From positions 310,001 through 374,000 of the forward strand of contig CAJINV010000016.1 in the NCBI GenBank assembly GCA_905178155.1: a stretch of 64,000 nt of DNA, in the 5' to 3' direction. This document shows positions 3,001 to 64,000 of the stretch, piece by piece. The notes under the pieces are model-generated. The model worked only from the letters and a program-made list of their open reading frames with translations. It ran no database searches and was not told the DNA's origin. Position 1 is the stretch's first letter, and every line of letters begins with the position of its first letter. The translations under genes and the position numbers were made by a program. This DNA is from Amoebophrya sp. A120 (taxonomy: Eukaryota; Protista; Dinoflagellata).

Positions 3001-6000
3001 TTTCTCTGCATCTACTCCCACGTGAAGATCCGGAACCGCCTTTATTCCCACTTCCTTCTTAAAGCTTTCGTCCAGATTTTGCAAAACCTTCTCAAAGTCT
3101 CTACTAGCGAGGAATGCTGAATCGACTGCAGCAGGGTCGACCGCTGGCGTAGCTGCAGAAATATTTCGCATGGCCGGAGAAAAGTCGTGATCCCAACTTC
3201 CCCGCCTCGACGGACATAACGCGGCCTTGAGGTCTTGTAGCAACAGCGCCAGCTCGGTGTTCAGGTAGGTTATACTGGTCGACTTACTTGGCGAGCTCAT
3301 CTTTCCGATCGCTTCTTTCACCTGCCACACAGCATTTTCCGGCCACGCTTTCACGATTAACTCCTGCACCGCTCGTCGGCCTTCTTCGCTCGAGTCGTGG
3401 AGCTGCAACAGGTATGGAAGCGTCAGGATTGAAATCGTCAAAGTTAAAAAAATAATTTCTCATGCATAAACTGCAAGGCATGAATTGCCTCTCTTGCAGG
3501 GACGGCAAGTGAGGCCGACTGTCAGCCTGTTTGGGGTCTGCGGTAGAGCTGCAGAGGTAGCATGACAAAATTAGATCAGAAAAACGGCCGAGGTACATGT
3601 TCTTTCGTGCAACCACTTGGCACGCGGGCCGCGGGCATAGCGACTAGAGGGGGCGCGATGGTGCGGCCGGACGATGGGGCAAGTCATCCGGCGGGTAGCC
3701 GCCTGCTGCTATGTGCTTCAATGACCGCAGGCGGGCGGCGCCCGCCCGGAAGAGGGAAGGGGCGGCAAGGTGGTCGCGCCTCGCTGGGCCCCCCCGGCCA
3801 TGGTTCTCACCGGGGGCGTGCGGCAGGCACGGCATGGTGGTGGAGCGCCAACCCCGGAGCCCGCACGATTATTTACAACTAGCAGCCCGGCCGCGAGATT
3901 GCCGGGGGGGCTTGACCTCTTCAGGGGGGGTGCGGCAGGGGCCGTGAAGAATCCCTCTTGGGGGCAACCTACCACCCCCCCTTCGGGGGGGGGGTAAAAA
4001 GGGGGCAAAAGTTGGGCCAATTCGGCCACTTTTTTAGGGGGGGGCAAAAAATGGCCTTCCCCCGCTGCTACAGGGGGGGGGGGGCAAAATGGCCCAGATT
4101 GAGCTTATTTTACCCCCCCCCAAGAAGGGGCCCGAATTGGGCCAACTCCGGGCCCCCATTTTGGCCCTCTCTCGCGGGGGGGGGGCCTCACCCCCGAAAG
4201 TGCCGAAGCCGGGCGCTCCTTTTTCTGCGCCCCCGCGACCATATTCGGCGCAGGGGCGCGCAAATGCATGCGCGGCTGCCGCACCCCATGCCGTCGCGGG
4301 GCCCCGCGCCGATAGCAGCCGGAAAGGGAAGACCCCGCGGACTATCGTTGCCTTCCCCCCGTGGGCGACATCCGGGCCGGGAAATCTATCCCGGGCCCTT
4401 GGCAACAAAGAACGCGCAGCCCGGCGCCTGGCGCGGCGAGGTCCCTGGGACGGGCATCTTAGTCGGGCCCCGGGCAGCCCCCAAAGCGAAACAAAAGCAA
4501 TGCCAGACAGTGGCGAAGCGCGACAAAACATGTACTTCGGCCGTTTTTCCGGTCTAACAAAAGACGCCTTCTGTCCCTAAACAGCATGACAAACTGGATT
4601 TAGACGGTGCCGAGATTTGTCATGCGCCGCTTGAGAATTGGGCTTCCAACTGGTATCGATTTCATGCGTTACAAGTTATTTCAACTTTGGCGATTTCAAA
4701 CCTGACACTTCCATAACAGGAGCGCGCTGCGGATAATCGAGATCTTGTTTGCGATTGAAGCGGTACTTTCGCCCACGCGCGACGACGTTGCAGTACCAGT
4801 AGGGCATACACTTGTTGACTTTAGTCCACCAAATTCGACCCGCTCCAAGAGCCACAGAGCGGCTGCCCGGACTTTGCGAAGTTGTGTAGCTGCTTCGTCG
4901 GCTCTGCTGCTTTTGGTCGCGCTGGTCACGATCAATTGAGGCGCTCGTGTCGAAAACAGGTCAAGCTTCGATAATTCTTCGATTTCCGCGTAATCCAACT
5001 TTTTTGCGGAGTCGACTCGCCCCGATGTTGGTAGAAGCCGAGTTCTTGTACTAGAAACTTGTACAACAACAGCGTTTGTTTCCTCGTTCGATGAACCACG
5101 TCGAACCGAACTGCTGTTGAGCAGTTCCGCCGCACCTACATCCAAAATTGATTCCCGGAGTTGCTTTTTCTCCGCGAGTGTGCTGCTGCTCTTGTCCAGT
5201 AGGGTGGAAGATACGGACTCGCTCTTTCCGCTGCAATTGTCCTTCTCGACCAGACCGACCCCGTCGACAGATCGACACAGGACATCATTTTTTCTTCCCA
5301 TAATTAACCTCGTGTCAGTTGTGGACTCTATAGAAAAGTTCCGATACCGCTCCACCAGTGCTCGCAACAGGACCGCCACGAGGGTTGAGTCCAAACTCGG
5401 TAGGTAGGACGCTCCCGCCCGCACAACAACCGGCCAGGCGGTTTGGAGCAGGGAGAATTTATGTTGCATAGAAGACAACATCATCGTACTTGTACTTGAG
5501 GAAGGACAAACATCTCCTGATGCGTCATCGCTTCCACGACTGCGAGTGGACGAAGATGATGACGATGGAGACGAGAAGAGCGATAGACCATCCACGGCTT
5601 TGCTTTCGACCGTCACGACCGGTTGGGCACGAAAATTGGTGCTGTCTGGGCAAGCCGACCGTGAAATTTTTGCTATCGTGAACACCGGCGTTCTTGTTGA
5701 GTCGTTGTAATCTTCTCCGCAAGATGAGAGTTCTCGACCCTGCTCTGCGCCTCCACGACGTCCCACCGCGTGCACGATGGCGGCGGCCTGGCCGAAGGTG
5801 AGTTGCATCAAATGCGCTTCCCCACTGGGATAAAGCTTCGACACGCCGTCTGGTCGTGCGGAACCAGAACGGAAAGTAGGCGCTGAAAAATCATTCGAAG
5901 AGCCGCAAATCTTCTGTGCCGCGTGTTCTAGAACAGCTGCGGAGCGACGTGTCGCTATTTCCGTCGAGGAAAAAACGTCCTGTAACTCGGATAACTCGGA

Positions 6001-7833
6001 AAGGATGTGAATCGCTTGCGGAAGTGACAAGAACACCTGTGGAACTACTTCTACGTTTTGAAGAGCATCATGCTGCTCTCGCGCTATGCGCGACGTTGCG
6101 GTCTCTTCTGCATCGACGTCCACTCCGGCGGCGTCAGACTCTAGTCCCTCCTGCTCGCTGTTTCCATTTAACAACCCGCCACGTGATCGCGGTAAATTGT
6201 TGTATGCTTGTTCATCTACCTCATACCTTAATCGGTAATGCTGCAGAGTGGAGAAAGAAGGAGCGACGGCCGCTCCAGAGTCGGCCGCTGATTGAAGCTT
6301 TCGGTAGATTTTCATGACAACTGCATCCAGTTTTTCAGCCAGCAGTGGTTTGTCTGCCAACAACTCCCGAGCGATCAAGGCACTTTGTGCAAGGGAAATG
6401 TCTAGCGGAGAAGTGGTTCTTTCGCTAGAGGTACAAGAACTCGCTCTTGAAGCTGTTGCTGCTCCTCCTACAACCCCTGCTGTTTTTATTACCCGCAGCG
6501 CGTGCTCCAGCCTGACAAGCAGAGTCCGGACGAAAAGTTGCGAAATATCAGTTGGAAAAGAAGTGGCTTTTGCGTGCCCTCTGTTTCTGGTTTCCATTTT
6601 GTCTCTACCATCACTACTGGAACTTTCTTCGCGAGCAACTACTGGTATCCGATAGCCAGATAACCCTGCTTCCCACCATATCAAATGTAAAAGTGTCTGG
6701 GTCTGGAAGATTGCCAGGTTTGTCATGCACATTTTGCATGACTGCTGGTGTCTGTGATGCATGCCCTAGCATCACAGATTTTGTGAGGGCTTCCTGATGC
6801 CTATACCGCATGACAAATGCTCTTTCCGTGTAGCAAAACTCGGACTCTCTTTGCTGCTCATGCAATACAGATTTTTTTAGAATCCAAAATCAGCATGACA
6901 AGTTGGATTCTTCCAGACCCAGACATTTTTACAGTTGATACACCGCAATCCCGCGAGTAGCTGCTCATTGGTCATTCGCAGGCCTTTCGGAAGGTGCAGC
7001 GGTGCATGATTCTGCTTGTTGTTTTTCGTATTGGCGGAAGACGAAGACGAGGAAAATAATGACGATGCTGCTAAAGAACCACCGACGGTTTTCTGCTGCT
7101 TCTCATGAAGTCGGACCACCTCTTGACACAGATTGGAGATTCTATTCGCGTACTGGTCTGCTTCGGGCACATCGATAGCTGCAACGGTAGTCCTACTTCT
7201 ACTTGAGTCGTCAACTTTTATTCCGGCGGGATCGACCACCTCCCCCTTATTTGCACTTTGAAAGAAGTAGCTCATCAATTCCAACACTTCGCACAGTTTC
7301 TCGCCCTTTTGCACTTCGAGGCTTCTTTCTTGTTGGCCTTCGCCCTCTTGATGCGCAAGAACGGGTGCCAGAGGATGCGGAAGATCATCTCGGTTCTTCA
7401 CAGAAACGTCTTCAGGCGTGGAACTACTGGACGAAGAGGTTTTCGAAACTTCACCTGCCGCTGGGGTTGTTGTTCCCGCGGCAGAGCAAAAGGCACGGCG
7501 TTCTTGCTGGTAGGTCGTTGGACTAACAGTATTCAGGCTGGTCGGCACCACGACGCTCTGGGCTCCTCGAACAAGCTGAAAAGCACAACTCGACGACGTG
7601 ATCCTGTTCCTGGAGATTTGTCGGGAAATAAGATTGCGGTGTTCTCGTGGTACTTGTGCCAATACCAACCCTCCTGGTTCTCTGGTCCCTTGAAGTAGAT
7701 GCTCCTCTGCAACTACGGAGCAAAGACGATGAGCATGGAGCGCCGACGTCACTTCCTTCCTGCGGGGTCCTCGAGGACGATTTTTGGCGCTGCACGAAGC
7801 AACCACAATACGCTTCCGAGACAACCCGCCCAT
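1..7833 (-). CDS. Very large (>2000 aa) uncharacterised low-complexity/helical protein with 3 exons; runs off the left edge of the window
   Basis: ORF 6877..8028 (likely ATG at 7833, MGGLSRKR...), ORF 4696..6762 and a frame open from 3412 towards position 1 join in frame (..LAGLRWEAGLS.., ..SALLLQLHDSS..) when elements 6679..6940 and 3413..4715 plus one TSD each are removed. Confidence 0.7.
3413..4715. mobile_element. Introner family B carrying a nested GC-rich element
   Basis: TIR tatggaagcgtcaggattgaaatcgtcaaagtt / aactttggcgatttcaaacctgacacttccata; perfect TSD acagg; homologous to the uninterrupted copy at 25039..25346. Confidence 0.9.
3571..4557. mobile_element. GC-rich MITE/foldback element nested inside an introner
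   Basis: 29-bp TIR ttagatcagaaaaacggccgaggtacatg vs ttagaccggaaaaacggccgaagtacatg (reverse complement); TSD caaaa; absent from the family-B copy at 25039. Confidence 0.85.
6679..6940. mobile_element. Introner family A (TIR tatcaaatg(t/c)aaaaatgtctgggtctggaa)
   Basis: ~30-bp TIR; TSD cacca/caccg; removal restores frame. Confidence 0.9.
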
Positions 7834-9100: not shown

Positions 9101-12100
9101 TCAGCTCAACCGTGCGAGTTTGTCGTAGAGTTGCTGCGCCATGTCTTTTCTCTCCCCCAGCACCGGCGTGCACTGCCGTACGCTCTTCCACTCGCCTTCC
9201 ACTTTTTTGATCCCCTCGGCCTTGGCGGTAAAAGGCCCCCCGTGCTGCCCAAGCAGCCGCCGGATCTCCCGGGGTCGGTTGTCTTTTTTCGTTGGTGGCG
9301 ACATTTGCTCCATCCTCGCCAACAGCTCCTCCGTGATCGGTTGACAGTCCAGACTTATCAAATGCAAATATCCCTGGATGTCTGGAAGAGTCGGGGTTTG
9401 TCATGCACATTTTGCATGACCCATGAGGTCACGTCAGTGATGCAGGTCCGTGCATCACAGATTTTTTGAGAGCTTCTTGATGCTTATCACGCATGAGAAA
9501 TGTTGCCCTCTCCGCGTGGTGCCAAGAGCTGGACTCTTCTTGCTGCTCATGCTGCAACACAGATATTTTTAGAATCCGCAGACAGCATTACAAGTTCCAC
9601 TCTTCCAGACCCAGACATTTTTGCAGTGAATAAGACTCGTTGCAGGCATGGTGGTCTTTTTTGCATACCAGATCGGCTCCAGCTGCGCCGCCCGGGGGTT
9701 GTATCCTGTGCAAAAGTATCGCACTCGTAGTAATCGCAATCATGCATTACAAATCTCCATCACAAGGCAAAACAAGACGACAAATTCCATTTGTCATGCT
9801 GAGCTAATTTGTTTTGCAATTACTACTAGTACGATACTTTTGCAGTTCATAGATTGCGTTTGGACACAAACCAGAAGGCCTGCTCCCGCCCGGCCTTCGG
9901 AGCGGAGAGGAAGGTGCGGCTCTCCTTGTCCACGGAAAGTAAAGTGGGGAGGGGCGCCTGAGGTGGGTGAAATCATAAGGGATGAAAAATCATGGGAAGT
10001 TTCAACATCTCACTTGTTTTCCTACATCATCTGCACAACACTAAAGAAAGAAGTGAAGTGCTCCTGCAGCTTGTTTTTCATAAGCAGGCACACTCGATAT
10101 TAAAATTGTGTTGATACAAAAATCACAACAAATCATACCCATACCGACAAGGCCTTCTCCATCGAGGGCGCACTTTCCTTGCTCAGCTCCCGAACGTCGG
10201 ACAACTTCGGGAATATCGCTGTGAAAAAATTCGCAACTCGCAACAGCGGGGCAGTAGAGTAAACTAGAAGCTACTTTTGGTCGTCAATGTCAATCCATCA
10301 TGCAGAGACTAGTGAACAATCATGAGAGCGAATACAAAACTTCTACGAATTATCCCATGTCAATCCACGATGCGCGCACTGGTTGTTCTGTTTCTGTTGT
10401 GCCTGTGCGGTTCTGGAATACGAAACAGACACAGTGAATAAATTCATCATGAGTGCGTAACACTTTTTCTGCCGCTCGTACTACTACACGAGTTGCGAAA
10501 GATTTCCGCTCCATAACACTCGGCCGACGACTGTGCTCCACTGTCACGATGCCGGACTAAATTTGGTTTTCCATTTTTTTCGATTTCTATTTCTATTGCG
10601 GTGGAACTTGCATCTACTTCACAAGAGAAATTTGTAATGGAGAACTGTGTGCAAGTGCATCTGCATGCTAACAATGGCCATATCGCATAACAACCTAACA
10701 GTAAGTACCGATCTGCCCCCTCCGCTAGTTGAAAAGCTCGGTCGCCTGGTGTCAATGTAGTCCGAAGATGAGTTGTAGCCTCCATTCCGTATTGTGCTCG
10801 TGTCGTCTATGCAATACAAAGTTGAAACCGCACAAGAAGCACAAAACGCATGAGAAGTTCGTCTCCGGAGGAGCTAAAAGCCGAGCAGGACACTTGTGAT
10901 GTTGCTAAACAGAATTGTGATTGTACGAGCGGATATTTCTTGATTTCCAGAATGCAATTTGTGTGTTATCGTGTACGGTATCAAATTTCCTGTACTTATC
11001 CTTCGAAGTGTCCCTTGTCGATCGTTCCTCTCGGGACCCGATTGCCGACCGGTCATTGTCGTAGGTATTTGCGTGCTTGCTAGAGTAGTTCTTGTGAGAT
11101 GACGCCTGGTTGAGCGAGTCAGCGTCGAAAAGAACACCTTCACCTTCTTCCGATGAAATCATTGTCCTCGTCCCGGGAGCACCTCCAGCAGCTGCATTTC
11201 TATGCTTGTTCTTACTCTTGTTTCTATAATTCCCCCCGCCACTCAACAGCAGTGCCTTTTTGTCTGCCGCCTGCTGCGCCGCCGCGGGGGTCACACCTGC
11301 AGCCAAAGCCGAGGTCGCTGACGTGCCAGGTTGATGTGTCGCTTTGTCGTAAAACGAGTAGCTTTTCACGTTCTTCGCTTTGCTATTACCCTGATGCTGT
11401 TGCGCCATCTTTTTCTGTCCAAGAAGCGGCGAAGAAGATCCAAGTTGCGGAGGTTGATGTTGCAGCACCAGCGAGGGGAGCAGCGCTGGTGGACCTGCAG
11501 AAAAAAAATTTTTCGCGGGAACGCGCACATGATCCTGATCCGACGTCCCGCCAGCTTCCTCTTTTTCGATCGGAGGTGGTAATCGGTAGGCTGCTGCGGT
11601 CCTTGGGTCGTACAGCTTTTCCTGGTATGGATTGCAAAAGTGTCTGGGTTTGTAAACTTGTGATGCTGGGAGGCGTATTTTCAGGAGGCCACAAGTGCTG
11701 GCTCAGCATGACAAGTTTTTGAGCTTCTAGGTGTTGATGCCTATTCTGCATGACAAACTGCGTTTCTACATGACAGAAAAATGGGGCTCGTGGGCAACGT
11801 GCATGACAGACTTAAGAGGCATGCCAGACTAGCATGACAATTCTCGCAATCTTCCAGACCCAGACATTTTTGCAATTCATACCTGGTCGACACGTAGCGA
11901 AGGGGAGGAAACGCAGCCAGAGAGGACCACAGCAGGCGGGTTTGTTTGCAGGAGACCTTTTTGCCCAACAGGCTGATGATGTTGCGCTTGCGTTCCTTTA
12001 TTCACCATGGCACCAGCACGACTTGACGATGCTATGCAAGAAAAAAACTGTGTGTGTTGCAGAACATCCAACAGAGTTGCGCCTGTCATGCCAGACAGCC

Positions 12101-13300
12101 ACGAAGTCCTCTTTTCAGGTGTGTTTTCCCCTACAAGCCACGCATGACAGGTTTTCTCTGTCATGTAGAGCAAATTTGTGATGCTGTTTCTCAAAGAAAG
12201 TTACACTTACACACTTTTTTTCTTGGATAGATGCACTGGTGTCAGTACCGCCCGGACGGGAAGATGAATTAGTACCATGCACCAATGTATCAAATGCAAA
12301 AATGTCTGGGTCTGGAAGGATTCGAATTTGTGATGCGAAGTCTACATCATGATAAAATTTGTCATGCATGGCTAGCAAAAAGCCCCATTTCTTGTTTCCG
12401 AGCGAGAGGATTTGTCATGCGGATTAGGCATTCGGATAAGTGCTCAAAATCTGTGATGCTAGAGCTTGCATGCCAGACGATCTGGGTCAGGCAAAAACTG
12501 CATGACAGATCTCGCAACATTCTTCCAGACCGAGACATATTTGCAATCCATACAAGGCGGGAAGCAGGGTCGTCGTCCCACCTGCTTTTTGATATCCAGC
12601 AGCAGATGACGTCGACGTGGCAGCATTTTTATTTGTACTCAGCATCGAGTAGTTGTTCATCATCTTCGTTTCTTGCGGATTAATACGATTACCAGCACCA
12701 GGATCATAATTGTTCACACCACCACGCCCCCCTCCTGCCGCTGCGGCTTTCACCTTCTGCATCTTCTGCTCGCTGATATGATTTTCGTCAAAAAACTGGA
12801 TTTCTTCGGCACAGAGGGGCAACAGTGAGCGCTGATTGTGACTCCCGCCGGTGGTGCCCCCGGCCGCGTGTTGGGCAAAATGCGTGGGACTGTTCTTCTG
12901 GCTAAAGCCGCCCCAGATGTCGCACGTCTCACAGGTGTCCACCGACGGGCGCCGCTCGCGGTCCGCCCGGATGTTATTGCACATGCCGGCGGCGGTGCCA
13001 TCCTCCAGTACTGTAGTTGGCGTTGGACCTCCATGATGTGGTCCTCCGTTATTTGTATGATTCTTCTGATGTTGTAGTGCCTGAGAATGAGATTGTGCGG
13101 TGACGATTACGGGCGGGGCGCGTGCTTTTGGCCTGCCGGAGGTACCAGTGGAACTGCTCGACGACGTTGTAGTTGTGTGGAAGAAGTTTCTGCCGCTGGT
13201 TCCTCCTCCTGCTACTCCTGTCGCCCGAACACGTGTCGTTCCACTTGCCTTGAACGCGCTCGCACCTCCGCCGGCGCGGGGAGTGGTCGTGACACCAGGA
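9101..13300 (-). CDS. Uncharacterised multi-exon protein (5' end uncertain)
   Basis: The 3' exons join in frame across one GT-AG intron and two introners: ..MEKALS|APLPTLLSVDKESRTFLSAPKAGREQAFWFVSKRN|PRAAQLEPIWYAKKTTMPATS|LDCQPITEELL...DKLARLS*. Upstream ORFs 10905..11528 and 12487..12984 probably belong to this gene but were not joined exon by exon. Confidence 0.5.
9356..9632. mobile_element. Introner family A
   Basis: TIR; perfect TSD agact; in-frame removal. Confidence 0.9.
9702..9851. mobile_element. Introner family D (TIR tat(cctg/gcac)tgcaaaagtatcg)
   Basis: TIR; TSD ggttg/gattg; in-frame removal. Confidence 0.88.
11626..11881. mobile_element. Introner family A
   Basis: TIR; perfect TSD cctgg. 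Confidence 0.9.
12033..12229. mobile_element. Introner family E (TIR tat(g/c)caagaaaaaaactgtgtaagtgtaacttt)
   Basis: TIR; perfect TSD gatgc. Confidence 0.9.
12288..12552. mobile_element. Introner family A
   Basis: TIR; TSD caatg/caagg. Confidence 0.88.
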
Positions 13301-15066
13301 GCGCCGCCGGCGTAGTGAGGCGGCTGTGAGGCGGAGAAAAGATAAGAAATTAGAATTTATTACATGGTTTGTTTCATGACAGAATCTCAAGTTCCCTGCG
13401 TGCTGTAAGTATAATTCGTTACACAAGAAAAAACAAAATCAATCAATCTCAATCGTATGTGGAGACTCCTCGTGGAAATTTACTTTTATTCAAAATTCAC
13501 AGAAAAAGCTTAAAAGACGTAAACAAACCTTTGCTCCATCTTGGTCCCCCGCCACAACTGCTTGGCTTGGTAATTTGGTCAAGGGCGCCGTGAGCAGATC
13601 TCGGACGTTGATCCGCATTTGTCACTGCCAAGTCGTGGTGCTGGACTTGATATAGAATTATCCACAACACCTGCACGTCGCTTAGTAGGTTCAGGACTCG
13701 GCAGCTGTCGCCCGTCGGCAGCGTCGACGAGGATGCGAAGTCCTTTAGCAGAAGGCTCCTCTTGGTCGCACCGAGGAGGTCGAGGTCCAAACCGCTTTCA
13801 GTAGCAGGAGCCGAAATGAAGAATCATCATGCCTGAGTAAGAGATGCACAACAATAGCATAGCAAAGTAAACAACTTCCAGACGGCGCGAAAAAGATGTT
13901 GTTGTAGCTCTTTGCTCATTACTCGGCGGCGATATTAAGCCTGTAATCTGCATGGAAAACGATAAATCCAGTTCCAGTTCCAGCATATAACCACTCAGAA
14001 ATAGAAATCATCTGCGTGACAACTGTCTTTGGCTTGTTCTACTTCTTGGGTGGAGCAATAAATAAATAAGACTACACGACTAGTAGCACTAGGTCCTATA
14101 AATTAGGTAGAAATAATCGTAAGTGGTTGGAAATTTACCAAATGCATACCGATGGCTGTCCTGGAACCCGACAGGGTGTAGCTCAAAGATTTCTCTCAAA
14201 TTTTTGCCACTCGTGATGCACAAAGAAGGGTTTTGCAGCTGAAGATGTTGAGCCTTCGAAAAAAGCTGGCCGGGCCGTTAATTTTTGTTTTGTTCATTCC
14301 ATGCAATCCCTCGTAGGACGACGCTAAAAAACAGGCCACGGAAAAAAAGACAATAAAGAAAAAACAAACAGATGAAATTCAAATTTTTGTGATGGAAAAT
14401 GCAACCAACTCAGCTAACACAAAGAACCAAAAGAAGTAGAACATAGAACATCACTCGTAGTCGACATTTGAGAACCAAACAAACACCCAAGTCACTTCTT
14501 GTTCCAGCGCAGGAAGCGAGGACGAACATAAACACTTACTAATGCCGTGCCGCGTACACGTCTTCGAGACTCTGCGACTTCTAATTCGGCCACTGCTACT
14601 CTTATCTATCACACCGAAGAACCTTTGTCGTTCGGCAGGGTGTATCCGTAAAAGTCTGAGCTGAAGGTAGAATGCTCCACTGAGAAGTACTAGAAGCAGG
14701 TGTCGCCTTTTCTCAAGGAGTTTCTCTTTCTCTTTGTCACAATCAAAGGTATCTATTTCCACCTACCGCAGCTAGTGGCAGGAGTTTAATAAGAAGGAAA
14801 GTAGTACCGATGATAACGTCGAATGATGTACTAGTTCACTCGTGCGAGAATTGTTCACAAAAAGAATCAAATATAGACGGTTTGCTTATTTTTACCCATC
14901 GACATCGAGTCCATTGTAGTGCCATTGTTGGTTTCTGTTTTTCTGCAAAGACCCAATTCAATCTGCATGTGATCCACCAAAACAAATCATTTACAGTTAC
15001 ACTTCGACCCCGTTGTTCCGGTGGAGTTTGCGTTTGCCGCTGCTTGTATGCAAGTGGAAGACGAAA

Positions 15067-15275
15067 TATGCAAGAAAAAAACTGTGTAAGTGTAACTTTG
15101 TAATGCAGAACATGCAACAGAGTTACGCCTGTCATGCCACACAGCCATGAGTTCTTCTTTTCGTGTGTGTTTTCCCTTACAAGCCACGCATGACAGATTT
15201 TCGCTGTCATGTAGAGCAAATTTGTGATGGTGTCAACCAAGGAAAGTTACACTAACACAGTTTTTTTCTTGGATA
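15067..15275. mobile_element. Family E element (UTR or intergenic)
   Basis: ~34-bp TIR; perfect TSD cgaaa; close match to the copy at 12033. Confidence 0.9.
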
Positions 15276-15525
15276 CGAAATTCATCAAATTCGGGCAACT
15301 ATACTGTGACGTAGTTCTGTTGATAATCCTTCAATCATGCAAGCATTTCTTTAGGTCTAGATGGACGATGATCCTCCCAGGTGTCATACGGCTACGCTTG
15401 AAGCCATGTATCTTCTATCAGGGCTTCCTTCCCCGCCCCCGCTGATTCAACAATGCATCTGCAGCCTGTCTATCTCATACTTCTTGTTCGAAACTACAGT
15501 CACTTTGTCCATCCATCTGCTTCCT

Positions 15526-45710: not shown

Positions 45711-45730
45711 TCTGCGGGAGCTGCTAGCCA

Positions 45731-45999
45731 TATCAAATGTAAAAGTCTCTGGGTCTGGAAGATTTCTAGATAGATTTGTCATGCATATTTTCCACGGCCC
45801 ATGAAGTCTGTGATGGATGCCGTAGTATCACAGATTTTTAGAGCGCTTCCTCATGCCTATTCCGCATGACAAATGCAATCTCCGCGGAGGAGCACAAAAT
45901 CTACTCCTCTTACTAGTCATGCAATACAACTCTTTTTCGAATCCAGAGACAGCATCACAAGTTGCAATTTTCCAGACCCAGACATTTTTACATTTGATA
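45731..45999. mobile_element. Family A element at the 5' end of PPKL-B
   Basis: Perfect TSD agcca. Confidence 0.9.
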
Positions 46000-48796: not shown

Positions 48797-51497
48797 TCAC
48801 TCCAGCGAATCCAAAAAGCCCCGGATTTTGGTGAAAAACGTGGCTCTGATAGAATTTTCCAGGCGGTGTATCACGATACAGAAAATGAATAAGTTCATCT
48901 TGCCTGTCGTAGTGGTAGTTGTGACGCCGGCATGAACGAAAATTAATTGAATTTGAAACACATTCTAACTACAACGTAGATAGAGATACACAGAGAAAAT
49001 TTTTTATACGTACACATATTTCATCTTGATCATCTCTTTTTTACCGCCAAATGACTTCGATGTCGTTGTGTCCGCCCTCGTGCACCCACCAGGGAGGAAA
49101 GGGCCGCAGACTATGCATTGCAAAAGTATTGTATCGCACTAGTATGATTTGCATTACAAATCTCCACAGCATGAGAAATGAAATTTGTGATGCTGAATGA
49201 CCTTAGGAAAAAGATTTGTAATGCATAACTGCAATTACTACGAGTACGATACTTTTGCACAGGATACAGACACGCTTCGTACAAAGCTTTCCCGTGGTCA
49301 ATCGGCACTTCCAAGTCGGCCGTGCCGTGGATCAGAAATACGGGGGCGTCCACTTCCTATGCATTGCAAAAGTGTGCTCGTATAAATGCATTACAAATTT
49401 CCTCAGCGTGAGAACAATGCGGATTTACCTCAAGAATACGATTTGTAACGCATGACTGCAATACGAGTACGATACTTTTGCACAGGATACTTCCTTTATC
49501 TTGTGCACGTTTTGGAAGACGTCGTACCAGGGGCTGTGCTGAATTTTGCTGTATACCACCGCCAGGCCGGATTTCAGCGCGGAGTGGAGAATGAGCCCCC
49601 CGAGGCCGTGCTGCAGCTCGTTTGCCAGGTGGATGCTCGGCGCGGAGCCGACGGACTGTCCGTAAAGAATTATCTGCGACATCGGGATGTTGCACTCCTC
49701 GTTCAGTTATGCATTGCAAAATTATCGTACCACTAGTTCGATCGTTCGAAAAAACAAAAATGTATGCAGTTTGTCATGCTGAATCAGGTAGAAAGTTAGA
49801 TTTGTAATGCTAGATGACTGCAATGATCTTTACGAGTGCGATAATTTTGCCATGCGTATGAGATACAGGAATGCGGCCTGGATGTCCGCATACAGGTTGC
49901 GCTCCGACGGCTCGCCCGTGCTGCACCCGTAACTGTGATGTTGAAGAAGCAGGTGTTTGGTCTTTGTTGAATACCCTAAATGCTGGTGTCGTGTCACAGT
50001 TTACTATTCTGCCCTTTACTGCAAAACATCGATTTTTCCGACACTAGTTTTGTACTAGTACGCTGATTGACGATGTTGATGTGTTTTATCTGTCGTCGAC
50101 AAATAGTTCTGATACGTACCCTGAGTAGTCATACGCCAGCACACTGACGTCGCACTTCGCGGCGATATCTCGGAGATGAGGAAACATCAAGCCTATGTCA
50201 GTGCTATTGCCGTGGGAGAAGATTATGGTCTGCGATCAACCGAAAAAACTGTTTTACTGTGATGATTTTCCTTTTTTCAATGAATCAATTACGGGCACGA
50301 CAAACATACCGGGAACATTTTTCATGCGTGGTAGATGGATACGTGGGGAAAAGACGGGCAACGTAACAAACAATGCCGTTTTGTCTTGTATTTGATGTAG
50401 AAGGAAGACATCAAATTACGACTGTGCTCTCGTGCTCGTCCATCCCCTGCATCACAAGTTCATTATAATGAAACAGTTTTTTCTTGCGATATCTTTCCTT
50501 TCCTTGCCAGAGAGCTGCTTGACGATGATCCTGCCACTTTGGCATGATCTCCTCCGGCGCCCCCAGCTGCTGTTTTTTTGAAGTGAAACGCCCTGAGTTC
50601 GTTTCCGACTACCGTGTGCAGCGTGACCGTTTCTACCGTAATATCCTGTGTAAAAACGTCCGCGCGGCCCCAGGTTTGTTTTATGGAGATCTGCATGGTC
50701 AATAAACTATTCTCTCATGCGAAGCCCCATGATGTTGAGAAGAATTGTCTAGCGTTGCTTTGGATTTTGTGATGCTCGAATCAGCGGAAACTGCTGGATC
50801 TTTGAAACTACTGCCCTAGCTGAACGCCACTACATTGCGCACCAAAACGAAAAATTGTGATGCGCAATAGCCAAAGCTTGCTTATTTGTGTAGCAGCTTC
50901 CCGATGTTGACTCTGTGGAGGTGGGGACGTTTTCACTCAGGATACGTTATCCCCAAAGCCGTGGACAGGTCCGGAATCGGTTCGGGAAACGGAGATGAGC
51001 TCCTAGAACACAGCAACGCTTTCCCCGTGTCGCTCAGGTAATACCCCGGCGGACAGGGGGGGAAAAGCTATCCTATGTAAAAACGCCCCCACCCCATGGC
51101 TGTCATGCGAATCCGGAGCCCCATGAGAAGCATTTGTCCTCGTGCGTTTGGCATCTGTAAGGCTCCCTCCCATCAGCGTAATAGGTTAGGGCTGCGATGC
51201 TGCTGAAAGAGCGAAACAGGACTGCACCAGAGGGCCAGACTTGTCATGCGCAACAGCCAATGCTTGTTGATTTGTCTAAGCAAATTTCCCATCTTGAACA
51301 TGGGGTGGGAACGTTTTTACTTAGGATAAAAACGCCACCGAATTCACGATCCGTTTCTTCACCCCCGGCACCGCCATGAGGCACCCCAGGAGGCAGACCA
51401 CGCCATCGCACCCGCCCTGGGGGGGTCGTCTGTCCGTCGCGAGATCCGTCGTCGAGGATGAGGAACTACTGGAGGACTGGCCGAAAGATTCCGGCAT
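48797..51497 (-). CDS. ABHD17: ABHD17-like alpha/beta hydrolase (protein depalmitoylase family); start uncertain
   Basis: N-terminal Cys residues (GCDGVVCLLGC), AFFPP, FSHGNSTDIG, YDYSGY, YADIQAA, nucleophile GQSVG, LIHGTADLEV, GGHNDIE; ends ...KIRGFLDSLE*. Confidence 0.88.
49112..49266. mobile_element. Introner family D
   Basis: Perfect TSD cagac. Confidence 0.9.
49358..49489. mobile_element. Introner family D
   Basis: Perfect TSD cttcc; removal gives IKEVDAPVFLIHG. Confidence 0.9.
49708..49858. mobile_element. Degenerate family D introner
   Basis: TSD tcagt/tgaga; the rule yields FLYLNEECNIP. Confidence 0.8.
50642..50944. mobile_element. Introner family J (TIR tatcctg.gtaaaaacgtcc)
   Basis: TSD cgtaa/cgtta. 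Confidence 0.88.
51069..51328. mobile_element. Introner family J
   Basis: TSD aaagc/aaaac; the rule yields VAFFPPCPPGY. Confidence 0.88.
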
Positions 51498-52785: not shown

Positions 52786-55700
52786 CTACACCAACTGCCC
52801 CTTCGACAGTTTCCGATCATCCTTGTTTCCCTTCTGTATGACACCGCTCCCGAGCGTCAGGCTGATAGCTGTTGCGTGTTCCTCATTCGCGTTGGTTTAA
52901 TTTCACTCAGAGCCTGTGTCACATTCTGCAGGATCGGATCAAGCTACTTCGCATGACAAGTTTCCAATGCGCCGACCTGCGATGGAATGCGTGCGGAGTT
53001 ACTCATGATCGAGGCGCAATTTGTAGCTTCGTCCTCGTCGTTTATTTGGATTTCTTTGCCTTATCATGCTATAATCTTGCATGCACCACCACAAATCATT
53101 CAAGCGAAATTAATCACGCCCCAGCGACCAACGTAACGCTTGAGAACTACGCCATACTGTGCCCCGTTGCACTCGTCTTGGAACCCGTTTTCTTGCTCCC
53201 AGCTTGTTTCACACCGACGGCCTCCCCTTCCTCCGTCGACGCAGCGGTTTTCTTCTTCCCGCCTCCACTGCCGCTCAACCCCGCCGCGTCGTCACCGCGC
53301 GAAAAAAACGTCCAGCGGGAGGTGGAGCTCCAGAACTTCCTGAAGAACACATCGCCCCCGGTGGTCGCCTGGTGCGATTGCGGTTGGAAGTGGTGTGCCC
53401 CAATGCAAAAAACCGCGAGGATCAGCAGAGGCACGAAAATATCATTTGTAAAAACGTCCCCACCCCATAGTCGTCTCATGCAAATCTGCATGCCAAAAAA
53501 GTTTCTCATGCGGAGCCACATGAGAGGCATTTTCTAGCCGTGTTTTGGAATTTGTGATGCTATAACCAGCACGATACTCGAGATCTGCGATGCTGGTGAA
53601 CTACCCAAAGAGGATTTTTACGCTACGGGGCCAAACTTGTCATGCGAAACAAGCAAAGCTGGTTGATTTGTCTAGCAGATTTCCCATCTTGACTCTGGGG
53701 TGGGGACGTTTTTGCTCAGGATAGAAAAGCATCATCCACAGGGAATCCAGGAAGAACACGCCCGATTTCTTCTCTTGCTCCTCCTCCTCGACGTTTATCA
53801 AATGCAAAAATGTCTCGGTCTGGAAGAATGCAGACTTGTCATGCATATTTCTCATGAACCCTGATGCCCGTAATGCATGACCTAGCATCACAGACTTTTA
53901 GAGGGCTTCCTGATCATGCGCCTTCCATATGAGAAATGCCCTCTCCGCGTAGCACAAACTGGACCTTTCTTGCTGGTCATGCAACACTAATTTTTTTAGA
54001 ATCCAAAAACAGCATGACAAGTTGCATTCTTCCAGACCCAGACATTTTTACATTTGATAACGTTGCCGGACCCGCGTAGTTCCGAGACCGCCGCGCCGTG
54101 GTTATGGCGTTCTCAAACGTTACATTCTCAACTGTTACACGAATTTATAATGCAAGAAGGGCAAAAGTGAAACGAGGAAGATTGCGCCTTTTGCATTACA
54201 GATTTGGGATGGATTGTAGTGCTATTCCTATTTAGCGCGTCGAGAAGTTGTCATGCGAAGAAGGCTTGATCGTGTGAATTGTGCTAGTGTTTGTGCATGA
54301 CAAATCATGTAACAGTTGAGAATGTAACGATTGAGAACGTCATAGTGGTCCCTCTTTCCGTGCAGGGTCGTCGCAGCAGAGGTCGAACCTTGTTGCGTAG
54401 CTCCAAGGACTGCCTGCTTCGTTTTCTGCTTCTGCACTTTCTTGGTCATGAGCATTTTCTCCCCCTGCTTGTTCTCGGCTCCAAGTTGCACGAAGGAAGA
54501 AAAAGAGCCAGCTGCACCGCCCAAGAATTGCTCAGCTGCTTCACCAAGCTTGACTTCGCCCTCCATCGCTGCACCACCCGCACCCACTTCGCCAGAAACG
54601 GAAGCAACTGCTCCTGTCGGGGTCGCAGTGGTGGTCTGGTTTTTCGCCGAATTGGTCGTGTCGATTTTTTTCTTGAGCAGCTCCTGAATCTCCTCCGCCG
54701 TGGTCGTTTTCGAGAGGCGGGGCAGCTTTTCCTCATGGCTCTCCTGCTGGATCGTGTTGTACAGGTCCAGCAGGTAGGCCTTTTTGCCCGCATCGTTCCC
54801 CGCTTGAATCACACACCTGTGGTTTTTCATGGCAAAAATATTGAAGCGCAGCTGCAAGAAGAAATGCACTCATGTTGCTCTTGTTGCGGTGCGTCCTGTG
54901 TGCATCAATGGTTGACAAAACAAGTGGTCGTCCTGCGAAATATTAGGAATTATGCGCAGCATAGGCATACCACAGGCACAGGAGTACCAAATATAGCCGC
55001 CGGGGCGGGGGTAGTGAGGTCGTGGGCGTTTTTTTTCCGACAGCCGCCTTGGCCGCGGCTTTGCTTTTTCTGGGCTCGCCATACCGCCGTGAGTAACGTT
55101 ATGCCGCACGGTATGGCGGTCACTTGAGAAACGTCGCGAATTTTGGCACATTTCCAAAATTCCTTTCCGAAAGCGAGCCCCCATGCTATGGGGCCGATCC
55201 GGGCGCCACGGGGGGCGCCCAAAAAGCGAAGAAAAATCGGGCCCGTAGCATGCGGGTTGGCTTTGCGCGTCTGGCGCGCTTTTTCTCTTTTGCGTTTTTA
55301 TTTTTCACGCCGGCGCTTTTTGCAAAGCTCCCCAGGCTCTGAAACCGGCGAAAAGGCGGCCGCTTTCGCGGCCGCCCAAAATGCTTCGAAATCGCGGCCG
55401 TGCCATGCTGTTCCGCTGTTCTGATTTTGGGCGCGTTTTCTGCGCGCCTCTTTTTGGGCGCCCCAAATCGCCAGAAACTAAGGCGGTGGGCTCCTCAGAA
55501 GGGCGCCCCTTTTGCCGGCTCCCCTGCGTCGTTTTATCAAGTGTGAATCGATAGTTTTCGACCTGGCTTTTTTGTTTTCAAAGCTCCGTCCGCTTGATAA
55601 TTGAAAATTTTTTTTGTCAAAAAACTCTTTCGTCCGCTTGAAAACTGCCGGTCGTTTTGCTGGCTGGGTGTCAAAAAAACTCCCCGGTTAGAACCGTTCG

Positions 55701-58051
55701 GTGACCTCACTACATACAAAGCCCCAAAATAAGTAAGTACTTATCATCACGAATAGTATCTATCAATTATGAAGTTGTCAAAATATTACGTGTGCATGAG
55801 CGACAAAATGCCCGTGTAGACTTCGCCTGGCAGCGAACCAACTCCCGCCTTCTCGTATCAAGTGCAAAAATGTCTGGGTCTGGAAGAGTGTACACTTGTC
55901 ATGCAGATTCGATTGTCCATGACCCATGAGGTCTGAAATGCGGGACTTAGCATGACAGCCTCTGCGAGGTCTCTGCCATGCCTATCCTGCATGAGAACCT
56001 CCTCCCTTCCAACTTGGTCGAAAGTGCGCAGCTTTTGGCACTCATGCAACACAGATTTTTGTATGCTTCAGGTTTACCATGACAAGTTACCACCTTCCAG
56101 ACCCAGACATATTTGCAATTCATATCTCGTCCCAGTGGCCGAGATACTCGGGCTTCAGGGTGCTCTCCGGGATCGCGTCGCACTTGATTTCGTATCCTGT
56201 GCAAAAGTATCGCACTCGTATAAATGCAGGTCTTGCATTACAAATTTCTTTATCAAGGCAAATCAGCATTACAAATTTTCTTTCTCATGCTGGGAAAATT
56301 TGCAATGCATTTATACGATTACGATACTTTTGCAGTTCATACTTCGATGGTGGGGTCGATTTTCAGCACGTACCCCGAATACGCCCAGACGCAGATGCAC
56401 CAGGGCTGCCCGGTGAACTCGTTACTCCAGGCCCCCTGCTTGGTGTTTGTAGAGAAGTTGTTCGGCAGCTTGGCGGTGCAAATCTGGTGCAACCCGGCGT
56501 CCCCCTGTTCCGGGCCGCCACCGTCGCAGTATATGGAGTTCGCAACCGTTACATTCATTGCCGGCTGTTACATGAACAATTGGGCTCGCCCGAACAGCAG
56601 TAGTGCTGGGCGGGACCGCGAGCGCGACCAGTTTGCTATACACCGATAGTGATCAGAATGAATTGCCATCTCAGAATCATCGAGGTTCTAGTTTGCGCGT
56701 CTTGCATTACAGATTGGGAACAACGGATTTCCATGCTATTGAGTGCGTCGAAAACTTGTCATCCAAAGGAGCCGTAGAATGTGAAGGCTCACAGGGGATT
56801 TGTATGGCAAATCATGCAAGTAGAAGTACAGCATATGAATGTCACGTTCTTTGAGAAAGCCATACAATAACCGCTCCGGGTCGGACCAACATTTTCTCCG
56901 CACTTCCTATGCATTGCAAAAGCATCGCGCTCGTGGTAATCGCTATCATGCGTGACATCAGCTTCTTCTTTTCAAGTTAACCGTAACTCGCATTAGCATT
57001 AAAAATTTCATCATTTCTCATGCTGGTGAGGGAATTTGTCATGAGATTTCTACTAGAATGATGCTTTTGGTTTTGCAATGAATACTTCCGTATCCTGAGC
57101 AAAAGCAGCCCCAACCAAGAACCGATCAACCCCCTGAGAACTTGTCACTTAAACTTTTATGCAGCCCCGACTGCGTTGTAAGTAGTCTCACGCACAAGAA
57201 CCCCAAGCCCAACATGCTGAGGATCATAATCACGACAGGAACAAAAAAATTTGCCATGCAACTGCACTAGCTAGTAAGTACCTAACGACTGCAGGAGAGA
57301 CCGAAGCTTGTCATGCCCAATAGACAAGAAAGTTCTCACTTTAGCTGGAGGGTGGGGGCATAATTTTTACACGACAGGATATTCTCGTTTGGTTCCCCAT
57401 ACAGGTTCTTCGGCAGCGCTTCGTATTCTGTGCAAAAGTATCGCACTCGTACTAATACTTGAATTGGAATCATGCAAAACAAAGATGCTTCATCGGCTTC
57501 CTCACTTGAATTATCGGCATCACAACTTCTACTTCTAAGAAGTAATTGTCACGCATTTCGTACTAGTACGATAATTTTGCAATGCCTACCTCTTTTGCCC
57601 CTTGGTGATCCGCGGAAGCCTCTTGCTCGTGGACGGGACTGGTGGCACCGGCAGAAGCGCCCGGCGTACTAGAGGTTTCTCAAATGCAAATATGTCTGGG
57701 TCTGGAAAGTTGTGATGCAGGTCACTGAATAATAAGCACACTGTAATGCGCAGCCAAGCATAACAAGTTTTTTCATGCTTCTGCGTTGCGTATTCCGCAT
57801 GAGAAACTGCGTGTTTGCATGACAGGCAAGAGGAGCTTTTGGTTGCCACGCAATGCAGATCCCAGAGTCGTGCCAGACTAGCATGACAAGTCTCGCAATC
57901 TCCCAGACGCAGACCCAGACATATTTGCAATCCATAAGGTTCCCGCCTTCGCAAGCGCTTGCTTGGCTAACCGCCGCATCTTTCCGCTCGCGGGAGTAAC
58001 AAGCCCGGTCAGGAGGCCGGTAGGAAAAAGAGAAAACGAAAAGACCCGCAT
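52786..58051 (-). CDS. DUF2237-like Cys-rich protein with signal peptide and C-terminal TM helix, copy B (11 introners)
   Basis: MRVFSFSLFPTGLLTGLV; NLYGEPNEKCG..SGYCDGG..GLHQICTAKLP..WCICVWAYSGY; TM WMMLFVPLLILAVFCIGA; paralogue of 60906..62192. The 3' end is less certain. Confidence 0.75.
52837..53156. mobile_element. Degenerate family C introner
   Basis: Right end gtaacgcttgagaactacgccata; left end tatgac; TSD decayed. Confidence 0.55.
53440..53723. mobile_element. Introner family J
   Basis: Perfect TSD gaaaa; removal restores the TM helix. Confidence 0.9.
53796..54059. mobile_element. Introner family A
   Basis: Perfect TSD acgtt. Confidence 0.92.
54103..54344. mobile_element. Introner family C
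   Basis: Perfect TSD gtggt. Confidence 0.92.
55011..55713. mobile_element. GC-rich insertion with an 11-bp inverted terminal repeat inside a GT-AG intron
   Basis: gtagtgaggtc ... gacctcactac; abrupt GC shift; no clear TSD. Confidence 0.5.
55856..56124. mobile_element. Introner family A
   Basis: Perfect TSD tctcg. Confidence 0.92.
56193..56341. mobile_element. Introner family D
   Basis: TSD tttcg/cttcg. Confidence 0.9.
56532..56864. mobile_element. Introner family C
   Basis: TSD cagta/caata; removal gives TRSGYCDGG. Confidence 0.85.
56908..57084. mobile_element. Introner family D
   Basis: Perfect TSD cttcc, overlapping the TSD of the next element. Confidence 0.85.
57091..57381. mobile_element. 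Degenerate family J introner
   Basis: tatcctg...caggata ends; TSD ttccg/ttctc. Confidence 0.8.
57424..57588. mobile_element. Introner family D (degenerate)
   Basis: tattctgtgcaaaagtatcg ... cgataattttgcaatgccta; TSD cttcg/cctct. Confidence 0.75.
57678..57936. mobile_element. Introner family A
   Basis: Perfect TSD aggtt. Confidence 0.9.
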
Positions 58052-62192: not shown

Positions 62193-63392
62193 AGAGCAGA
62201 GGATAAATGAAAATGGCGCGACTAGTTGTAGATAAAGATGACGAAACTAAATACATAAAAACTGGCGTGAGATTGTGCGCAACCGCTACCTCAATAATCG
62301 ACGATGGATATAGATACTTACCTCGTCCACCACAAATGAATATAGATACCCGGCAATGTCAAACATCAACAGATACGATTTATCGTCCCACTAGATCATG
62401 AGCAATCGATATTATCGGGGCGAGGTAGATACCAACGACAAGATTGAGCAGATCGGTGTTTGGATTCGAGGGAGTGTGCTATGGTGCGACGAAAACGAAT
62501 GTACGGAGGTGCAAGGACTGACTTTCCCTTTCACCTCCAAAATCGGAGTGAGGAGAGACTCCTTAACCTTATCTTCATGTCCCAATCTTTATGAAACGAC
62601 GATGATCTTCTACAACGAGAGCGACCACAAGTTCCATGAACCCCATCTAGATCTACTCAACCACCAAATCAATATTTAGCGAGATCTATTGCAGTAGCAA
62701 ACGAGTGGTCACGGATACGATTGGGTATAACATTTTGCACCCGAAAGAGCTATTTTAAGACGAATTACCCACGACGAGGAACAAAAACCGGGCAGCTCTG
62801 TACGGCGTGTCATCATCTCTCCTCTGGCTTCTACTGGAGCAGAGGCAGCTCATGTGGTATTGTAAGTACCCACAACTGACATTCATGTAGTTTCTTGCTT
62901 TCATCCTTTATTTCCTGTTGTTCGTTCGAAGTTGCAATGTTGTTCGATGTTCTAAAAGCCACTGGTTTGCAAGTTGTTCTTTGTTCGCTGCTGTCACCAA
63001 TTGTCGAGTTGTCACATGATGATTTCCTGTCGACGAGTTGTCATGCTCTTATCTGCCTAGCACGAAACATTACCTGCTTTGATGCGCCCCCATCGCGCAT
63101 AATGTTGTAGAAGCGGGCGTAACTACTACACTCTTGGTCATTCATGATCTCTGTTCTTTCCCCAGTAGCATCAATCATCATGCGCGCAATTCAGTAAAAT
63201 AAAATGAAAATCACTTCGTTCGTTGCTTTCAAGAAGAGGGAGGTGGCTATCCGGAAAATTGATGTGCAATTAGATGAAAAAATAGCTTCCACGTCGGCGG
63301 GACGAAATGTTATATGTAGCTAGCATCATTTTCATCGCCCGGTGTAAATTCACCAGAAGAGTAGACGAGAATATTAGACTTCACTCAGTGCG

Positions 63393-63654
63393 TATCAACT
63401 CCAAAAATGTCTGGGTCTGGAAGATTGCCACGTTTGTCATGCAGGTTTTCTATGGCCCATAAAGTTTAGAATGCAGCACCTAGCATGACAAATTCTGTGA
63501 GATCTCTATCATGCCTATCATGCATGAGAAATTGCCTCTCAACTTGGTAAAAAAGGGCGGCTGTTGGTAATCACGCAACACAGATTTTTTGCACGATTCA
63601 GATTTAGCATGACAAGTTGCAACCTTCCAGACCCAGACATATTTGCATTTCATA
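63393..63654. mobile_element. Family A element
   Basis: Perfect TSD gtgcg. Confidence 0.9.
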
Positions 63655-64000
63655 GTGCGTCACGTTTTCCACCGTTAAGCTCCCCTTTCCGTCCACACTG
63701 AACATGAGGTCAATGTGGTGGTGCGATGTTTCTTCGATAGAGACGGTGGTGAGAGGCGTCCCGTCGGCGGCCACCACTTCAATGTTGAAGGAACCTGATA
63801 TACAATATTTTCTAGGTAGGTGAGGTTCACCATAGTCTCGATCCACGCAACATCACACCAGTGAAGACCTTGTGATGGGCCGCCGTCGTCCATGCAAAAA
63901 TTCAACGATTCGGAATAAGTATAATCAGGTGATGTTCTTTGTCATGCAACAAACATGAAATGCAGCTATGGTACCTGGTGCGCATGCGAAGCTCTCCTTC

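Follow-up and report, generated by a model that had tools for sequence, protein, structure and literature searches.

TAT...ATA introners of Amoebophrya sp. A120 and a candidate fixed register for their removal from RNA

Described introners and the elements of the window

The introner elements of Amoebophrya sp. A120 have been described by Farhat et al. 2021 as 1,954 families of about 240 nt without a transposase, carrying an inverted repeat of TAT, seven variable bases and an A run, and direct repeats of 3-5 nt (PMC7789003; here and below, published statements are those of the portions of each source covered). The legend of its Fig. S19 shows a 5-bp direct repeat, that of Fig. 3 calls the splice sites 'variable' and says that the border 'remains unknown', and that of S23 gives a distance of 1-5 nt between the A120 repeats and the splice sites; since the borders looked variable, the splicing mode has been left open in print. 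In another source, the 22 of 58 A120 rows of Dataset S2 covered here mostly read 'TIR DNA, unknown' (TIR, terminal inverted repeat), list either no duplication or one of 2-5 nt, and give mixed mechanisms (PMC12130899). Here we analyse a 64,000-nt stretch of A120 DNA (the window; contig CAJINV010000016.1, positions 310,001 to 374,000) that holds many such elements. The elements and their removal from RNA are already published for A120, and the feature is real, a known system in a known strain; to this we add a fixed register of splicing in which three bases (U+2, A+3 and A-7, counted from the intron ends) are conserved. We did not find this register in print in the portions covered of PMC7789003, PMC12130899, PMC11282704, PMC10045372, PMC13326754, PMC12005148, PMC9860276, PMC12787238, PMC12501133, PMC12621601, PMC11453091 and bioRxiv 10.1101/2020.10.14.339549; figures 3 and S19-S25 of PMC7789003 may bear on it.

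Pattern scans, together with reading of the gene frames by eye, yielded 69 TAT...ATA inverted-repeat elements (Table 1; elements are named below by their start coordinate), which total 19,927 bp or 31% of the window, and further decayed copies may remain. The earlier note on this DNA, made from the letters alone, had estimated about 65 elements with TAT(C/G)...(G/C)ATA ends and 5-bp direct repeats, and the count agrees well with it: such ends are present in 53/69 elements, TAT and ATA together in 61/69, and the 5-bp direct repeat is perfect in 37/69, with one mismatch in 21, two in seven and three or more in four. A strict scan of the window returned 32 short elements that combine TAT/ATA ends and a perfect 5-bp repeat with a strong inverted repeat, versus none in each of 20 dinucleotide shuffles. 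By BLAST grouping, 48 elements fall into eight multi-copy families, the largest with 16 and 12 members, and 21 are singletons; families A and B are present in both orientations. Position counts at both ends give a terminal inverted repeat of TAT and seven variable bases followed by at least three A. In short elements, a motif like TGTCATGC/GCATGACA reaches 11 per kb versus 0.6 per kb outside. It is present in 63/69 elements, whatever their family and in either orientation, and may mark a transposase or RNA-protein site common to them. No Rfam match was obtained at gathering scores.

An end-pattern scan of a metagenome collection returned at least 149 loci, of which the 80 listed are all on JACKZZ01 contigs (the second genome below), and 147 loci (L001 onward) were taken into the analysis; viral contigs gave no match to the end pattern. 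The window families recur in the second genome, where the best copies reach 96.6% identity, and at the one orthologous locus the exons are 89-100% identical to those of the window. Among 280 second-genome elements called from inverted repeats alone, a perfect 5-bp repeat flanks 214, a 4-bp repeat two and a 6-bp repeat none. One locus, L054, is the orthologue of a kelch-Rab gene of the window and carries four elements that are absent from the window, where a single 5-mer stands at each site. Thus, the 5-bp repeats are true target-site duplications, and introners are common to these close relatives while their positions differ. With TIRs, a target duplication of fixed length, empty orthologous sites and multiple copies, the elements have the properties of miniature inverted-repeat transposable elements (MITEs). 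At L054 641-785 and 1778-2046, one element interrupts the final bases of a canonical intron and the other the end of an older element, positions that need ordered, nested splicing.

Removal from RNA and the splice register

Assembled contigs of runs X3 and X6 (joints listed in two tables, 15 of 96 and 15 of 151 rows) skip the element plus 5 nt at 16/16 listed element joints, as expected from the proposal in the earlier note that transcripts drop an element with exactly one repeat copy. They also skip five CT..AC introns, i.e., GT-AG on the minus strand, which identifies the contigs as spliced RNA. Copies of 1.3-1.5 kb are removed exactly, and so is the poorly paired copy 32882 (6 of 20 in register, fold z +0.4). 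Transcript lengths fit 22 further elements, and model and contig agree exactly in length for two kelch-phosphatase genes, PPKL-a (3892 nt) and PPKL-b (5375 nt), and for 1439 nt of the kelch-Rab gene, which covers 38/69 elements; the other 31/69 rest on frames or the annotated protein. Since only part of the joints was listed, the evidence for most junctions consists of length sums or frames. The interrupted motifs singled out in the earlier note (Rab GK/S, PPP GD/IHGQ, I/HGG and DGF/ERF, the slash marking the insertion) are restored once the element and 5 nt are taken out. If left in the RNA, the element would bring a stop codon in the frame tested in 67 cases, a frameshift in one and neither in one, this frame being meaningless for two non-coding copies (23277 in a 3' untranslated region, UTR, and 15067 inside a canonical intron). 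The raw RNA runs X9 and X10 match pieces of elements only (176 and 4 reads, none whole) and are silent on junctions.

These contigs also bear on whether the elements might be removed from DNA in the manner of the internal eliminated sequences of ciliates, or the contigs derive from element-free gene copies. The TA-bounded ends and the exact restoration of the target would suit such an origin, and the run type of X3 and X6 is a guess. However, the same contigs skip canonical introns, and in run X1, which may be the source of the assembly, depth is 0 at all six element joints listed beside it (15 of 151 joint rows being listed) and long pieces cross seven elements ungapped, which leaves removal from DNA hardly credible. 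Short contigs of X1 join the end of one element to the start of another (9851-12288, 9851-15641 and 11881-12288) at depths of 130-470, whereas single-copy depth is about 30; artefacts of the assembly graph, tandem copies and circle junctions are all candidate explanations. In the assembled loci no element ends abut, the smallest of 162 gaps being 13 nt.

With a perfect 5-bp repeat the junction can slide, whereas a decayed repeat does not allow it; we denote by k how many bases of the upstream repeat stay in the exon. All nine listed joints with mismatched repeats allow k = 4, which is the sole value common to them: values above 4 are ruled out by 29353 and 31239 and values below 4 by 32882, and the junction of 25908-27233 is not slidable and fits k = 4 alone, giving an intron that starts with TT and ends with CA. 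In a comparison with 76 homologs, the residue kept at k = 4 is P at 31239 in 76/76, D at 32882 in 65/76, A at 44767 in 59/76 and Q at 38794 in 73/76, and no single k other than 4 keeps all four. In the annotated A120 protein P0122, the Cys of LHGGC at 19831 is obtained only with k = 4 (from the sequence, k = 3 would give Ser and k = 5 Trp), in an annotation that is not independent of RNA mapping. At three elements shared with the second genome, the differences between the genomes in the repeat are confined to predicted intronic bases. Where junctions can be pinned, the intron is N-TAT...ATA-NNNN, with one base before the element and four after it, and we infer the same register for all copies. 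The earlier note had taken the transposon ends to be the splice signal; conserved information does reside in the ends, but the cuts do not fall on them, lying instead 1 nt before and 4 nt after. At 57085-57090, the target sites of two elements overlap, so that in the fixed register the exon between them would be 1 nt long; the frame remains open.

A spliceosome that chose, within each duplication, the register most like GT/GC/GA...AG, as in the Polarella introner classes and as described for A120 in PMC7789003, would cut at places that vary between copies. Such a choice would agree with the seven of 16 listed joints that have perfect repeats and slide freely, with one second-genome copy that is canonical in another register, and with the mixed mechanisms in published family tables (PMC12130899). 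It is improbable given that the nine informative joints all share one register, that the pinned junction is TT...CA, that GT/GC-AG is possible in any register for only 2/69 elements, and that the repeat differences at the three shared elements all lie in predicted intronic bases.

Conserved end bases and the mode of splicing

T+2, A+3 and A-7 are kept in 69/69 elements of the window, where the changes at the ends fall at +4 in four cases and at -5 or -6 in five. Second-genome copies were oriented with a codon model that assigned the strand correctly in 16/16 cross-validated window chunks; it oriented 203 of the 280 elements, and 77 could not be oriented. Three of 15 second-genome variant rows with three or more repeat mismatches, probable miscalls, were dropped (two against the polarity and one for it), and of the 12 end changes next to an intact repeat, 10 conform to the window pattern. 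Over both genomes, 5' changes are at +4 in 9/10 cases and 3' changes at -5 or -6 in 10/11 (Fisher p 0.00035; p 0.008 for the window alone). Both counted exceptions are in locus L002, one being a GC donor with G at +1 and the other having target AGGTG, which is GT-AG at k = 2. Mis-orientation of L002 would erase both exceptions, but was rejected since L002 is truly a minus-strand gene. Mutational strand bias would not explain the pattern, because T-to-C changes are seen at +4 and A-to-G changes at -5, whereas +2 is nearly free of the former and -7 and +3 of the latter.

The canonical introns of the host genes start with GTA in 13/14 cases. Judged as U2-type introns, the elements have conserved U+2/A+3 in 69/69 window copies, with one GC donor among the oriented second-genome copies, and a GT or GC donor with an AG acceptor in 2/69, as GT-AG. 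The description of the elements as non-GT-AG introns in the earlier note is accordingly sound, while its statement that no AG acceptor is available was too strong, for 6/69 end in AG and two (11626 and 40904, both with target CCAGG) have complete GT-AG borders in the fixed register. An apparent enrichment of G at +1 (28/67, p 0.002 versus background) was discarded, as it vanished once the mirror site served as the reference (p 0.21) and the second genome did not show it; enrichment of AG was likewise rejected, with AG ends in 6/69 window and 16/190 second-genome copies. In Table S4 of PMC7789003, which is affected by aligner placement and whose CT-AC row may be GT-AG on the other strand, the nine predominant A120 and nine A25 non-canonical motifs all have T at +2.

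The kept bases resemble a donor core N-U-A and a branch A at a fixed 3' distance and not a coupled stem, and hence favour a relaxed spliceosome. We give slightly better than an even chance to the reading that these are transposase-less TIR elements whose removal, in one fixed register, is the work of a relaxed U2-type spliceosome reading their ends. The TAT...ATA elements duplicate 5 bp on insertion and the RNA loses the element and one duplicate. The 5' end of the element would supply U+2 and A+3 of the host GUA donor, leaving +1 free, and the 3' end would supply A-7 as putative branch point, from which the 3' cut would be measured without AG; the terminal hairpin may bring the ends together. 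Given symmetric ends and offsets of one and four bases that add up to the duplicated 5 bp, an element could insert anywhere and in whichever orientation, and the mRNA would remain unchanged. Catalysis would presumably be spliceosomal, and A-7 is a candidate branch adenosine. A120 is reported to have the U2, U4, U5 and U6 small nuclear RNAs (snRNAs), SF1, U2AF and Prp8 (PMC7789003).

Several observations count against the relaxed spliceosome and its supporting evidence. Spliceosomes normally require G+1 and a final AG, and neither is favoured here: G+1 is found in 29/69 window elements versus 21 at the mirror site, and in 64/190 second-genome elements, the same as at other positions, and final AG is favoured in neither genome. 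Only 6/14 host canonical introns have A at -7. Taken by itself, the second genome does not show the polarity at a significant level (p 0.08), and two of the three dropped rows would oppose it. Only one RNA junction pins the register by itself. The RNA contigs come from two samples of one study, labelled 'RNA?', and show the main form and not the efficiency; element sequence is abundant in them (depth peaks), so that some transcripts may retain elements. The assembled contigs show neither a lariat nor a splicing intermediate. None of 12 frames from the long inserts of the window had a Pfam match, and three distinct long copies in the second-genome loci were compared by BLAST only; with no transposase found, mobilisation of all elements by one transposase in trans, the single system proposed in the earlier note, is an inference from their structure. 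Finally, pairing of the ends is predicted in 64/66 short elements, so that donor and branch A would be hidden unless unwound, and U1 snRNA was not found in A120 (PMC7789003).

The last two points, and the lack of selection for G+1 or AG, would be expected if the same elements and register were served by a separate hairpin-guided machinery like that of the nonconventional introns of Euglena, whose code N3-CDG...CHG-N5-6 the present geometry parallels (PMC12501133). This alternative is unlikely, though far from negligible, in view of the polarised conservation, in which U+4 varies while its partner A-7 is kept and A-5 varies while its partner U+2 is kept. Moreover, weakly paired copies are removed exactly although pairing is essential in Euglena (PMC12501133), the kept bases match the host GUA donor, and both exceptions gain spliceosomal signals. 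Extending the relaxed U2-type spliceosome to the whole strain, we tentatively suggest, at somewhat less than an even chance, that the A120 spliceosome has dropped G+1 and AG for most introns and reads N-U-A and A-7, and that A25, with TTA at +1, follows the same rule with a different transposon.

Host genes, other inserts and related systems

All host genes modelled in the window are on the minus strand, and Pfam supports kelch, phosphatase and Ras domains in them; the kelch-phosphatase genes are presumably of the type labelled PPKL. PPKL-a has 15 elements in its coding sequence, one in its UTR and seven GT-AG introns, and the model with the 15 elements and seven introns removed equals protein P0001 of Amoebophrya sp. 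A120 in all 787 residues. Intact host proteins, one of them identical to an annotated A120 protein, bear out the view of the earlier note that the genes are not inactivated, and this identity together with the published A120 introner anatomy shows that its comparison with Amoebophrya was right (PMC7789003). P0122 is 100% identical over the searched exon of the kelch-Rab gene; an annotated A120 PPKL-b was not among the 24 matches of the protein search. From 14985 to 46005, the two kelch-phosphatase paralogues and the kelch-Rab fusion gene adjoin on one strand, and P0002 has phosphatase and Rab domains in one 1249-aa model, which suggests the same gene neighbourhood in a relative. The stretch 17480-17640, which annotated P0122 reads through, starts with GTAC, is weakly conserved in L054 and is probably an unannotated canonical intron. 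The genes at 55794-57980 and 60909-62246 are related, with eight elements versus none; the latter has a weak DUF2237 match below the cut-off. The gene at 48990-51830, host of six elements, we take from its motifs to be an ABHD17-type alpha/beta hydrolase; a 50-aa piece of it had no Pfam match.

Gene spans, which make up 55% of the element-free DNA, contain 68/69 elements, and the remaining one is in a 3' UTR. The approximately 19.6 kb outside coding spans thus hold this one element (p about 1e-16), with element-poor gaps at, among others, 8071-9103, 13357-14984, 33925-37942, 46006-48989 and 57981-60908; the excess in genes could reflect exon targeting or faster loss elsewhere. Inserts of 1.0-1.6 kb at 25969-27075, 27917-29246 and 58760-60377 are flanked by direct repeats of about 39-53, 25 and 53 bp, respectively; two of them are nested in elements, none has a Pfam match, and an X3 contig of 1068 nt shows 29 differences from the similar stretch 28254-29312. 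They are possibly a second class of mobile element. The stretches 3570-4560 and 54900-55760 are GC-rich with poly-G/poly-C fold-backs and have no copies in the second-genome loci; the former has its own 40-nt inverted arms and lies inside element 3413-4715.

Table 1. Elements and host genes of the window. Element rows span TAT to ATA; on the + strand the intron runs from start-4 to end+1. S, singleton.
Feature	Family	Position	Strand	Remarks	Basis
Element	H	3413..4715	-	~1 kb GC-rich insert, repeat ACAGG/ACAGG	scan; removal gives 2165-codon frame
Element	A	6679..6940	-		scan; frame
Element	A	9356..9632	-		scan; frame
Element	B	9702..9851	-		scan; frame
Element	A	11626..11881	-	target CCAGG, GT-AG at fixed register	scan; frame
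Element	E	12033..12229	-		scan; frame
Element	A	12288..12552	-		scan; frame
Gene kelch-Rab		14985..20545	-	P0122, 634 aa; left end approximate	P0122 match; Pfam
Element	E	15067..15275	-	within canonical intron of kelch-Rab gene	scan; sequence vs P0122
Element	A	15641..15881	-		scan; P0122/homolog comparison
Element		16483..16705	-	in Rab GK/S; common to second genome	second genome; homolog comparison
Element		16802..17028	-	common to second genome	second genome; homolog comparison
Element		17088..17374	-	common to second genome	scan; second genome; homolog comparison
Element	C	17693..17912	-		scan; homolog comparison
Element		19592..19796	-	decayed repeat (4 mismatches)	transcript length sum; P0122
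Element		19831..20126	-	decayed repeat GATGG/CCGCC (transcript sense); annotated Cys only with 4+1	length sum; P0122
Element	C	20237..20500	-		scan; length sum
Element	C	23277..23512	-	PPKL-a 3' UTR, spliced	RNA joint skips 241
Gene PPKL-a		23820..33924	-	kelch + PPP phosphatase, 787 aa	model 3892 nt = contig 3892 nt; Pfam
Element	D	23959..24373	-		RNA joint skips 420
Element	A	24748..24999	-	5' end TAC	RNA joint skips 257
Element	H	25039..25346	-		RNA joint skips 313
Element		25407..25576	-	two repeat mismatches	RNA joint skips 175
Element		25908..27233	-	nested insert, repeat GCATT/CCCAC, in CI/HGG, intron TT...CA	RNA joint 25903-27235 skips 1331, slide 0
Element		27774..29282	-	nested 1.3-kb insert	RNA joint skips 1514
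Element	B	29353..29507	-	register 4 or less	RNA joint skips 160
Element	A	29571..29832	-		RNA joint skips 267
Element	S	29863..30075	-		RNA joint skips 218
Element	S	30150..30370	-		RNA joint skips 226
Element	A	30931..31181	-		RNA joint skips 256; fold z -3.3
Element	C	31239..31457	-	register 4 or less	RNA joint skips 224
Element	A	32147..32409	-		RNA joint skips 268
Element	F	32490..32811	-		RNA joint skips 327
Element		32882..33064	-	decayed, weak hairpin, register 4 or more	RNA joint skips 188; fold z +0.4
Gene PPKL-b		37943..46005	-	814 aa; 19 elements, 6 GT-AG introns	model 5375 nt = contig part 5375 nt
Element	B	38062..38206	-		transcript length sum
Element	G	38345..38568	-	in DGF/ERF	length sum
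Element	G	38794..39018	-		length sum; homologs
Element	A	39075..39351	-		length sum
Element		39906..40205	-	in GD/IHGQ; 3' end ATG	length sum
Element	S	40259..40567	-		length sum
Element	F	40904..41216	-	GT-AG at fixed register	length sum
Element	B	41277..41422	-		length sum
Element	S	41466..41632	-		length sum
Element	G	42276..42504	-		length sum
Element	B	42831..43001	-		length sum
Element	F	43079..43404	-		length sum
Element	E	43470..43677	-	3' end ATG	length sum
Element	S	43741..43959	-		length sum; homologs
Element	B	43999..44130	-		length sum
Element	A	44402..44667	-		length sum
Element		44767..45053	-	decayed; 5' TAC, 3' ATG, three repeat mismatches	length sum; homologs
Element	S	45422..45674	-		length sum
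Element	A	45731..45999	-		length sum
Element	B	49112..49266	-		frame
Element	B	49358..49489	-		frame
Element	B	49708..49858	-	5' end TAC	frame
Element		50234..50491	-	3' end ATC	frame
Element	D	50642..50944	-		frame
Element	D	51069..51328	-		frame
Element	S	52837..53156	-		frame
Element	D	53440..53723	-		frame
Element	A	53796..54059	-		frame
Element	C	54103..54344	-		frame
Element	A	55856..56124	-		frame
Element	B	56193..56341	-		frame
Element	S	56532..56864	-		frame
Element	B	56908..57084	-	1-nt exon before next element	frame
Element	S	57091..57381	-		frame
Element	B	57424..57588	-	5' end TAG	frame
Element	A	57678..57936	-	3' end AGA	frame
Element	A	63393..63654	-	likely at coding-sequence end	scan; short frame only

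A fixed register would provide one simple code for tens of thousands of apparently signal-free introns, and single bases can now be named for a splicing mode whose borders had looked variable. It would explain how exons are filled at about one copy per kb with proteins unchanged, and would serve as a rule for correcting A120 gene models. If true genome-wide, it would either show the extent to which a spliceosome can be relaxed or provide a second case of Euglena-like splicing.

The elements are like the published A120 introners in organism, TAT inverted repeat, short direct repeats and RNA-supported non-canonical introns, and differ in that repeats of 3-5 nt and variable sites are published, whereas here the duplication is uniformly 5 bp, the register is one and the conservation is polarised (PMC7789003). 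The nonconventional introns of Euglena also have a MITE-like origin, fixed spacers between a terminal inverted motif and both cuts, no GT-AG, and junctions whose sliding conceals the code; their motif is CAG/CTG with spacers of 3 and 5-6, they need pairing and an exon purine, and they are thought to be non-spliceosomal, with circles (PMC12501133). In contrast, the present elements have TAT/ATA, spacers of 1 and 4 and a kept donor U+2/A+3, and the pattern N3-CDG...CHG-N5-6 followed by R is not found in the window elements. Introner class 12 of Polarella glacialis likewise has a 5-nt duplication and, at NNAGG targets, a donor made of the last target base and the first element base, but it needs G+1 and a target AG, so that only some targets work, and neither is favoured here (bioRxiv 10.1101/2020.10.14.339549). 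Fritillaria borealis also has introns derived from TIRs and duplications, with a modified U2 spliceosome, and differs in that these are mostly AG-AC and AG-AT, exonic TAC is preferred and U1 is conserved (PMC11282704, PMC13326754). Lastly, IS3EU/GingerRoot elements share TA..TA termini, but their duplications are usually 6 bp (PMC10045372), as against 5 bp here and 0/280 second-genome elements with 6 bp.

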